DNA of 64,000 bases from NCBI RefSeq assembly GCF_024298765.1, contig NZ_CP101210.1; one strand, written 5' to 3'. The first letter of the stretch is position 1. Each line of letters starts with the position of its first letter. The notes beneath the pieces were generated by a model that made no database searches, had not been told where the DNA came from, and saw only the letters and a list, made by a program, of their open reading frames with translations. Of the stretch, positions 47,465 to 49,686 are shown in pieces. This stretch comes from Escherichia coli (GTDB taxonomy: Bacteria; Pseudomonadota; Gammaproteobacteria; Enterobacterales; Enterobacteriaceae). The translations under genes were made by a program, and so were the position numbers.

Positions 47465-48115
47465 ATGCATCGTATAGACACGAAAACCGCGCAGAAGGAT
47501 AAGTTCGGCGCGGGTAAGAACGGTTTTACCCGTGGTAACCCCCAGACCGGCACGCCTGCCACCGATCTGGATGATGACTACTTTGACATGTTGCAGGAGG
47601 AGCTTTGCAGCGTTGTGGAGGCGTCCGGTGCCAGCCTGGAGAAGGGGCGGCACGACCAGCTGCTTACCGCGCTTCGTGCGCTGCTGTTAAGCCGCAAGAA
47701 TCCGTTTGGTGATATCAAATCGGATGGCACGGTGAAAACGGCTCTCGAAAACCTTGGTTTGGGAGAAGCGGCGAAAAGGGATGTGGGCACAGGAGAAAAT
47801 CAGATACCGGATATGTCAGCCTGGAAAAGAAATCCGAGTTCTAATCGCTGGAGAAAATTGCCTGATGGAACCATCATTCAAATGGGAATATCAGCATCAG
47901 GGCCATTAGGCTCACCTGTAAATATCACCCTGCCGATATCTTTCAGCAATACCAATTATTGTGTTGTTGCATCGTACGATAATGCACGGTCAGGTGTGTC
48001 AACAATGGTTAGTTTTGCAGCGTTACCTGTTTCACCATCGCAATTTTCCCTGATGTCATCTGTGACTGAGCAAGGAATAAATCCTTTTGCTTACTGGATT
48101 GCTTTTGGAGATTAA
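47465..48115 (+). CDS. Tail fibre protein (constant N-terminus joined to the variable C-terminus of the current orientation)
   Basis: 216-aa ORF; the recombination crossover site lies inside the coding sequence at 47742-47767. Confidence 0.75.
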
Positions 48116-48118
48116 TAA

Positions 48119-48538
48119 ATGGATAGATACTTCTATTCACAAAAAGAAAATGGTTTTTTTACCGATTTAAATAAAGCACCTTCAGATGCTGTTGAGATAA
48201 CCACGGATGAATGGCTGTTACTACTGGATGGTCAGGATAATGGCATGAAAATAGTCAGCAATCAGGAGGGATATCCGGTTTTGACAGAGCAACCACCTTT
48301 ATCAAAAGAAAACCTTATTGCATTGGCGGATTTGAAAAAAAGAAAACTTATTAATGAAGCCAACGAGCACATGAACAGCAGACAATGGCCAGGTAAAGCG
48401 GCGATTGGTCGCCTGAAAGGTGAGGAACTGGCGCAATATAATTTGTGGCTGGATTATCTGGACGCACTGGAACTGGTCGATACTTCCGGTGCGCCAGATA
48501 TTGAATGGCCTACGCCTCCGGCAGTTCAGGCCAGATGA
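48119..48538 (+). CDS. Tail fibre assembly protein (Tfa, current orientation)
   Basis: 139-aa ORF directly after the tail fibre. Confidence 0.7.
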   Translation: MDRYFYSQKENGFFTDLNKAPSDAVEITTDEWLLLLDGQDNGMKIVSNQEGYPVLTEQPPLSKENLIALADLKKRKLINEANEHMNSRQWPGKAAIGRLKGEELAQYNLWLDYLDALELVDTSGAPDIEWPTPPAVQAR

Positions 48539-49115
48539 CGTCCGGCGCGGTGCTGGTATCTGTTGCCGTCACCGCGTCAATGTAATCCAGCACAGCGTTA
48601 AGTCGGGTGTTTTCTGTCTGCATCAGCTTCCGCCCGGCCTGCAATTTCAGTTGAATCAGACTAATGGAAGCCATTGCAGTATCAATCAGTGACTGACGCT
48701 GTGCTTCTGCCGCGTCTACTGCGGCGCTATGCTGTGCCTCAGTATCGGTCACCCATTTCTCACCATCCCATTTATCGTATGGCGTTAATGGGGCGATAGT
48801 GGTTGTATTTTCAGGGTAATCACCCGGAACTGTGATTTCTTTGGTATCTCCCGTTTCGGTACTATAGACAACTTCACCGCGATGGTCTGGCACATATTCC
48901 CATGAATTTAAATCTACAGAGCGACAGATTGCATAACCAGCTTTATGTGTACCTGGTGCATCCAAACAGGAACATGCCGGGATACCGACGCCGACAGCGA
49001 GATATTCAGTTGATGTAGAAATATATTCCCGCGTTTCACCATCATAATTATAAACGGTAATATCTCCCGCTTTTATGGCAATGAGTTCGCTATTTAATAC
49101 AGCTTTATTCATCAT
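48510..49115 (-). CDS. Alternative tail fibre assembly protein (silent orientation)
   Basis: 201-aa ORF on the opposite strand within the invertible segment. Confidence 0.65.
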   Translation of the reverse strand: MMNKAVLNSELIAIKAGDITVYNYDGETREYISTSTEYLAVGVGIPACSCLDAPGTHKAGYAICRSVDLNSWEYVPDHRGEVVYSTETGDTKEITVPGDYPENTTTIAPLTPYDKWDGEKWVTDTEAQHSAAVDAAEAQRQSLIDTAMASISLIQLKLQAGRKLMQTENTRLNAVLDYIDAVTATDTSTAPDVIWPELPEA

Positions 49116-49607
49116 GCGGCCCTCACAATATAATTAAAAGCGATGTTACGAGGACGAGTTTCTGTACCTACATTTTCACTAATTTCACCATAACGTTTAA
49201 CACTACGAGAGCTAATAGCTCGTAGTGAGGAAGGCACCTTAAGACCGGGTTCGTCCGTTTTAACTATTCCCCCGTCACCGTATGTAGCCAGTATTCCTGG
49301 GTTTACTCCTTCCCGTGCACTTCCTGCGGCGAGTCCGTCCCCTGTCCATAATTCCATATAGTGTGCATGGTCCAAAATTGTGTGTGGCTGCCAATTAAGC
49401 AAAGCGCGACCAGTATCAATCCCGCGACCGTCATCCCAGCCACGAATAAATTCACCGCGTAAATCAGGCAATTTATTGGTCGGGTAAGCCTTTGCCAGTT
49501 CCGGGTATTCTTCAGCAGAAAAAGCCGCACCGTTGCATTTCAGCCAGCCTGTTGGCGGAGTGGCGGAAGGCCACGGAACAGGCACACCAACGGGTAATGC
49601 CGAACCT
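49112..49607 (-). CDS. Alternative tail-fibre C-terminal variable segment (promoterless cassette in this orientation)
   Basis: Reading frame runs through the right crossover site (NVGLGEG versus ENLGLGEA in the expressed fibre). Confidence 0.6.
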
Positions 49608-49686
49608 TCTCCCAAACCAACGTTTATGAAAATGCAGAAATAACGAGCAAATGGCATCATTCCTGCTTTTGTCAGGGAGATCTACC

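Follow-up and report, generated by a model that had tools for sequence, protein, structure and literature searches.

An intact Pin-type invertible tail-fibre segment in an apparently complete SfIV/e14-like prophage of Escherichia coli

Does the segment that interrupts this tail-fibre gene still work as a switch between two fibre ends, and is such a switch new? We examined this question in a window of 64,000 nucleotides from Escherichia coli (contig NZ_CP101210.1), the whole stretch of DNA that was analysed, for which a sequence-only reading had proposed a Pin/Gin-type invertible segment. The switch is real and intact, it had been interpreted correctly, and it is already known. Very probably, the locus is a functional two-state switch catalysed by Pin, of the same type as the e14 P, Mu G and P1 C segments, residing in a complete SfIV/e14-like prophage. 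We infer that it is active in this strain, that it depends on Fis and that its inversion alters host range, the last of these by analogy with the Mu and P1 precedents.

The segment is delimited by two crossover sites:

47742-47767, plus strand: pixL, the left 26-bp crossover site, CTCTCGAAAACC-TT-GGTTTGGGAGAA
49607-49632, plus strand: pixR, the right 26-bp crossover site, TTCTCCCAAACC-AA-CGTTTATGAAAA

A repeat finder returned inverted arms of 20 nt at 47749-47768 and 49606-49625, which are 95% complementary and contain a perfect core of 15 nt (47754-47768 and 49606-49620). By chance, about 0.007 such repeat pairs would be expected per 4 kb. The 14-bp inverted cores reported earlier, at 47754-47767 and 49607-49620, are present, and the perfect match is in fact one base longer; all other coordinates of the sequence-only reading likewise agreed with the sequence, the list of open reading frames (ORFs) and the repeat finder. 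Between the cores lies an invertible segment of 1,863 bp. The 26-bp sites are inverted relative to each other, and their central dinucleotides, TT at 47754-47755 in pixL and AA on the plus strand at 49619-49620 in pixR, are asymmetric and mutually inverted. Serine invertases require this asymmetry and mutual inversion for religation after a 180-degree rotation. The central TT of pixL falls within the fibre reading frame. Both sites are base for base those of the K-12 e14 P segment and of strain CX07, and pixL is also identical to the site of KSC1031. A third pix-like site was not found within the 64-kb window; with two sites only, the system is therefore a simple two-state one.

The genes in and beside the segment are arranged as follows:

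47465-48115, plus strand: the complete fibre ORF in the present orientation, 216 aa, from the ORF list
47465-47753, plus strand: the constant 5' part of the fibre gene (Sc), ~96 codons, outside the invertible segment
47756-48115, plus strand: the variable fibre C-terminus now expressed (Sv), with a Gp53-like_C domain
48119-48538, plus strand: tfa, encoding the 139-aa assembly chaperone Tfa, in the same direction as the current Sv
48510-49115, minus strand: tfa', encoding another chaperone of 201 aa, Tfa', silent in the present orientation
49112-49618, minus strand: the alternative fibre C-terminus (Sv'), with a tail-collar domain
49687-50241, plus strand: pin, encoding a serine DNA invertase of 184 aa, with catalytic Ser9

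Sc sits at the end of a late tail/baseplate operon, in which a baseplate J-like gene and a YmfQ-like gene precede the fibre gene to the left of the segment; the ymfQ-like gene ends at 47461, 3 nt before the fibre start. PHROG matches to tail-fibre N-termini span fibre residues 1-103, and residues 131-215, in Sv, match Pfam PF21882 (Gp53-like_C, 8e-13). Sv' is contained in an ORF listed at 49112-49660 on the minus strand and matches Pfam Collar (PF07484, 4.7e-15) as well as PHROG tail fibre and tail collar fibre families. Tfa was assigned to phrog_188, tail fiber assembly protein (1.7e-52), and Tfa' to phrog_105 (1.2e-97). NCBIfam left the fibres, the chaperones, the YmfQ-like protein, a GIY-YIG protein and a 404-aa ORF unassigned, and PHROGs and Pfam were used in its place for the fibres and chaperones.

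These ORFs and family matches bear out the proposal that two fibre C-termini and two chaperone genes lie in opposite orientations inside the segment, and the ORF list confirms that tfa and tfa' overlap convergently at 48510-48538, by 29 bp. The layout is that of a cassette switch, with a constant N-terminus outside the segment and, inside it, two C-termini in opposite orientations, each followed by its own Tfa gene. When we inverted 47754-49620 in silico, Sc was fused in frame to Sv', giving an uninterrupted fibre of 265 aa compared with 216 aa at present. The crossover thus lies inside the fibre frame as had been suggested, and the peptides ENLGLGEA and NVGLGEG that read across it are confirmed by the ORFs and the in-silico inversion.

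The invertase gene lies immediately outside the segment, as the ORF list and Pfam confirm, with its start 54 bp beyond the crossover site. Pin contains the Pfam domains Resolvase (7.7e-52) and HTH_7 (1.6e-12), belongs to phrog_125 (DNA invertase) and aligns without gaps over 179 aa with the Gin structures 3UJ3 and 4M6F (E 3e-93). It is 94% identical to K-12 PinE, 96% to PinE of CX07, 77% to Mu Gin and 80% to P1 Cin. The sequence-only reading had named a mutated catalytic serine as evidence against the switch; in Pin, this serine (Ser9) is intact. Together with the N-terminal resolvase domain and the C-terminal HTH, it identifies Pin as a small serine recombinase. Pin carries S9, R42, K46, K47, R50, Q150, R153 and L154, matching Hin S10, R43, K47, R48, K51, Q151, R154 and L155. 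For the two proteins as a whole the identity is approximately 64%, a rough figure, and we used the residue correspondence alone. In the study of McLean et al. (PMC3798978), those Hin residues are either catalytic or specific to Fis/enhancer-dependent invertases. Pin therefore has the invertase-specific residues for contact with Fis and the enhancer. A simple scan for sigma-70-like promoters returned none between pixR and the pin ATG. Over 47300-50400, the scan for sigma-70 promoters and terminators gave no excess over shuffled sequences, with none upstream of pin or of an ORF on the pin side of the segment.

A further element of such systems, the Fis-dependent enhancer, had been suggested for the 5' part of the invertase gene, and we found a candidate there:

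49705-49776, plus strand: candidate recombinational enhancer, within the 5' part of pin

This interval is homologous to nucleotides 19-90 of P1 cin, annotated in AF234173 as 'enhancer of Cin-mediated C-segment inversion', and it differs from K-12 pinE at 3 of 72 positions and from the flipping CX07 locus at 1 of 72. It holds two Fis-like 15-mers, TGTCAACAAATGACC (49709-49723) and GTGCAGGATGCGAGC (49757-49771), whose centres are 48 bp apart; the first has T, not G, as its 5' base. Johnson et al. (1987) reportedly described the same centre spacing for the Fis sites of Hin. The P7 record has an enhancer annotation similar to that of P1.

A degenerate Fis consensus, GNNYRNNWNNYRNNC, matched the window 115 times, against 131 matches expected, and has no discriminating power. 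Because the consensus is too common, we relied instead on the homology with the P1 enhancer and on a test of synonymous sites. Twelve invertase genes, 61-96% identical to Pin over the first 135 codons, were compared after two near-duplicates had been dropped. We measured how often an identical amino acid was also encoded by an identical codon, both by region and in six-codon windows. The identical-codon fractions were:

codons 8-13, first 15-mer: 0.73
codons 14-23, spacer: 0.37
codons 24-29, second 15-mer: 0.67
codons 31-135, rest of pin: 0.41

The six-codon window at the first site ranks 1st of 129 and that at the second site 7th, and every window ranked above the latter overlaps the first or the second site. 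Such a distribution fits an enhancer with two Fis sites, while falling short of proof: the genes compared share ancestry, and the 5' ends of genes can be constrained in other ways, for example by translation initiation. The search for an enhancer in the 5' part of pin thus yielded a candidate through P1 homology and synonymous conservation, whereas the consensus scan was uninformative. A synonymous signal at two places ~48 bp apart may serve as a simple indicator of Fis enhancers that needs nothing but sequence; here it confirms existing knowledge.

The wider setting of the locus is a ~40-kb element bounded by a 129-bp direct repeat (14491-14619 and 54288-54416) that includes the 3' end of the tmRNA gene (ssrA, 54390-54752). 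The chromosomal flank, with smpB, ratA, bamE, recN and nadK, is 100% identical to that of E. coli genomes. Within the element are genes for an integrase, a CI-like repressor, replication, endolysin/lysis, terminase and portal, and further genes for capsid, sheath, tape measure and a Mu-like baseplate. A GIY-YIG gene and a restriction-modification (R-M) pair lie downstream of pin. Located at ssrA, the element is apparently a complete SfIV/e14-like myovirus prophage, and its module is shared in part with phage records including SfIV, pro483, HK97 and P2-like phages.

To see how the segment lies in other genomes, we compared complete E. coli records in both orientations. At a coverage of at least 80% of a 2.9-kb query, the present orientation was found in 22 records; with the query inverted in silico, the inverted orientation was found in 29. 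Two pairs of same-series isolates capture the flip itself. CX07 and CX15 have equal genome lengths and carry the locus at the same coordinates, and an exact inversion, with its ends within the same repeat, is their sole difference across the 5,845 bp compared. Likewise, JE86-ST05 and JE86-ST02 differ solely by an exact inversion across 5,889 bp. In K-12, the e14 P segment is mixed and inverts in clonal cultures (Goldberg et al. 2014, PMC4272514), and PinE and PinQ were both found by qPCR to invert it (Kirigo et al. 2025, PMC12529663). The window represents one assembly, hence one orientation is visible for this strain.

On these grounds, we propose the following mechanism. Dimers of Pin would bind both 26-bp sites and, with the Fis-bound enhancer inside the 5' part of pin, would assemble an invertasome. 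Pin would cut at the central TT/AA, the half-sites would rotate by 180 degrees, and religation would leave the 1,863 bp inverted. The 5' part of the fibre gene, from the promoter through the start codon to about codon 96, would remain outside the segment; because this constant start lies outside, the baseplate-attaching N-terminus would join a different receptor-binding C-terminus in each orientation. Each orientation would also place the matching Tfa chaperone gene downstream of the fibre. The present orientation would thus yield the 216-aa fibre with its Gp53-like_C end together with the 139-aa Tfa, and the flipped orientation the 265-aa fibre with the tail-collar domain together with the 201-aa Tfa'. 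From a population of lysogens one would expect mixed virions with two adsorption specificities.

The role of the switch may also be read differently, in view of a short leader next to pixR:

49633-49660, minus strand: short ATG leader (MMPFARYFC...), between pixR and pin and hence outside the segment

The leader keeps the pin-facing C-terminus in an ORF either way, with 182 aa now and 133 aa once inverted. A pin-side leader ORF is also present in K-12 e14, where the leader is MPFACYFFIFINVGLGE, and the leader here corresponds to the 5' ends of stfE and stfE2. Inversion of the e14 P segment creates StfE2, which lowers T2 adsorption (PMC12529663). The switch might, then, serve the host instead of, or besides, the phage, if a fibre tip made by the lysogen blocked the receptors of other phages; this blocker might include the product of the pin-side ORF, as reported for K-12 e14 StfE2 and T2. 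A leader that holds the pin-side cassette open in both orientations and is conserved with K-12 stfE would suit such a role, as would the StfE2 precedent, in which both PinE and PinQ flip the segment. We nevertheless consider it unlikely. The prophage looks complete and inducible, so a classical role in virion host range suffices, and the variable parts are merely 53-60% identical to those of K-12, so a T2-specific effect is not transferable. Moreover, the simple scan detected no promoter-like site for the pin-side ORF, the AGGA of this ORF directly abuts its ATG, and the defence role comes from a single study, of a cryptic prophage. By analogy with StfE2, one might also imagine a double duty, in which alternation of the virion tip is combined with a free 133-aa Gp53-like_C protein, made in the lysogen once flipping has put this tip behind the pin-side leader, and acting as a phase-variable superinfection mask. 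This, too, seems improbable to us; if true, the receptor mask would defend the lysogen much as StfE2 does, with a specificity unlike that of the K-12 case.

We regard it as most improbable that the locus is an inactive relic, with recognisable parts and a segment that no longer flips here, for instance because pin is unexpressed, and a fibre fixed in its present orientation. Decay of this kind has a parallel in KSC1031, the closest complete-genome match (98.4%), in which stfP, tfa, tfaE and Sv' are truncated or frameshifted, and the failure of the simple scan to find a pin promoter would be in keeping with it. At the present locus, however, none of the five ORFs is damaged, both crossover sites have the sequence of active ones, and the catalytic and Fis-contact residues are in place. 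Furthermore, Pin shares 96% identity with the invertase encoded at loci that are demonstrably inverted between sister isolates.

We reject inversion by chance or by RecA, as the repeat spans 15-20 bp only and has the sequence of a site used by a known recombinase, and the ends of the natural inversions fall exactly inside this repeat. No further pix-like sites turned up in the 64-kb window, and we therefore also reject a multi-site, Min/p15B-type shufflon. The two-state switch catalysed by Pin is the reading we adopt.

Beyond correct annotation, the significance of the locus is small: a PinE module is found intact on a complete SfIV-like prophage with other receptor-binding cassettes, and the RefSeq names pinE, stfP and tfaE have already been given to the genes of near-identical loci. 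Recognising the module aids host-range prediction for the phage. It also helps in reading 'differences' between isolate assemblies that are mere flips of the segment.

Among known systems, the Hin/H segment of Salmonella employs an invertase of the same subclass, with the key residues conserved. Its crossover sites measure 26 bp as well, and its enhancer is situated at the 5' end of the recombinase gene. Hin flips a promoter, for flagellar phase variation, whereas coding cassettes flip here. The G segment of Mu with Gin and the C segments of P1 and P7 with Cin follow the same logic as the present locus, with Sc outside and Sv-U and Sv'-U' inside. Gin and Cin, 77-80% identical to Pin, are Fis/enhancer-dependent invertases whose genes contain the enhancer within their 5' end. 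The segments of Mu and P1, of 3-4.2 kb compared with 1,863 bp, exceed the present one in length and encode much longer fibres: the S protein of Mu has 504 aa compared with 216 or 265 aa for the fibre described here. U and U' of Mu do not overlap, unlike tfa and tfa'. Here and in Mu, transcription of the invertase gene leads away from the segment. In P1, cin runs towards cixL, and the two overlap at the 3' end of cin.

The closest counterpart is the e14 element of K-12 (ymfQ-stfP-tfaP-tfaE-stfE-pinE), in which gene order and orientations are as here, the crossover sites are identical and the invertase is 94% identical to Pin. The constant region, from ymfQ to the 5' part of stfP, is 96% identical at the nucleotide level, TfaE is 90.5% identical to Tfa' at the amino acid level, and the same 29-bp convergent overlap is annotated between tfaP and tfaE. 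Judged by sequence, the locus is the e14 P-segment/PinE system in all defining respects, namely sites, synteny and invertase. The cassette alleles differ, with amino acid identities of ~60% for the fibre and StfP, 53% for TfaP and 59% for the StfE-like part, and mcrA follows pin in e14, where the GIY-YIG gene and the R-M pair stand instead here. Whereas e14 is a 15-kb remnant at icd, the host element here is a complete ~40-kb prophage at ssrA. What distinguishes the present locus from e14, as the alignments indicate, is its cassette alleles and a host element that is whole instead of a remnant.

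The right crossover site of the JE86 prophages (loci L008 and L009, from strains JE86-ST05 and JE86-ST02) has CCTTTTAGAAAA in place of CGTTTATGAAAA as its outer half. The segment has flipped despite this variant, and variation is therefore tolerated in the outer half-site. The nearest relative among complete genomes, E. coli KSC1031 (98.4% over the region), retains an intact pinE and both crossover sites, while stfP, tfa, tfaE, and Sv' (positions 12066-14238 of its locus, L001) are all annotated as pseudogenes, truncated or frameshifted. Decay of the cassette genes thus need not entail loss of the flipping machinery.

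Features of the cassette, its surroundings, and the prophage ends (window positions)
14491-14619 and 54288-54416: near-perfect 129-bp direct repeat
48448-48465 and 48574-48591: 18-nt inverted repeat, 83%
49633-49660, minus strand: 18-codon leader with its own ATG
50299-51072, minus strand: gene for a 257-aa 'LEM-3-like GIY-YIG domain' protein (phrog_5356)
51437-54161, convergent: DNA cytosine-5 methyltransferase gene and 404-aa ORF (NCBIfam, PHROG)

The pin-side leader is conserved with K-12 stfE and is not part of the invertible segment. From the leader runs a second, short chimeric ORF in either orientation, encoding 182 aa at present and 133 aa once the segment is inverted. K-12 StfE2, the post-inversion counterpart of this ORF, has recently been reported to block adsorption of phage T2 (PMC12529663).

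Within the segment, the arms of the 18-nt inverted repeat flank the convergent tfa overlap on both sides. The two Tfa chaperones, encoded on opposite strands, share ~35% identity across their last ~65 residues, and the repeat is probably a reflection of this C-terminal similarity rather than a separate element.

The 129-bp direct repeat spans the 3' end of ssrA (tmRNA, 54390-54752) and ~100 bp past it, and its two copies are probably the attL and attR ends of the ~40-kb prophage. For an att core, 129 bp is unusually long.

The 491-aa methyltransferase (NCBIfam PRK10458, 927 bits) and the 404-aa ORF are situated between pin and the ssrA attachment site. In PHROG the ORF matches a type II restriction endonuclease, and the two together resemble a restriction-modification pair that travels as cargo. 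Among complete E. coli genomes, 245 records cover at least 80% of this 4.15-kb stretch, and the best match reaches at least 99% identity in 252 records. The GIY-YIG protein gene lies immediately downstream of pin, at the place held by mcrA in the cryptic prophage e14 of K-12.
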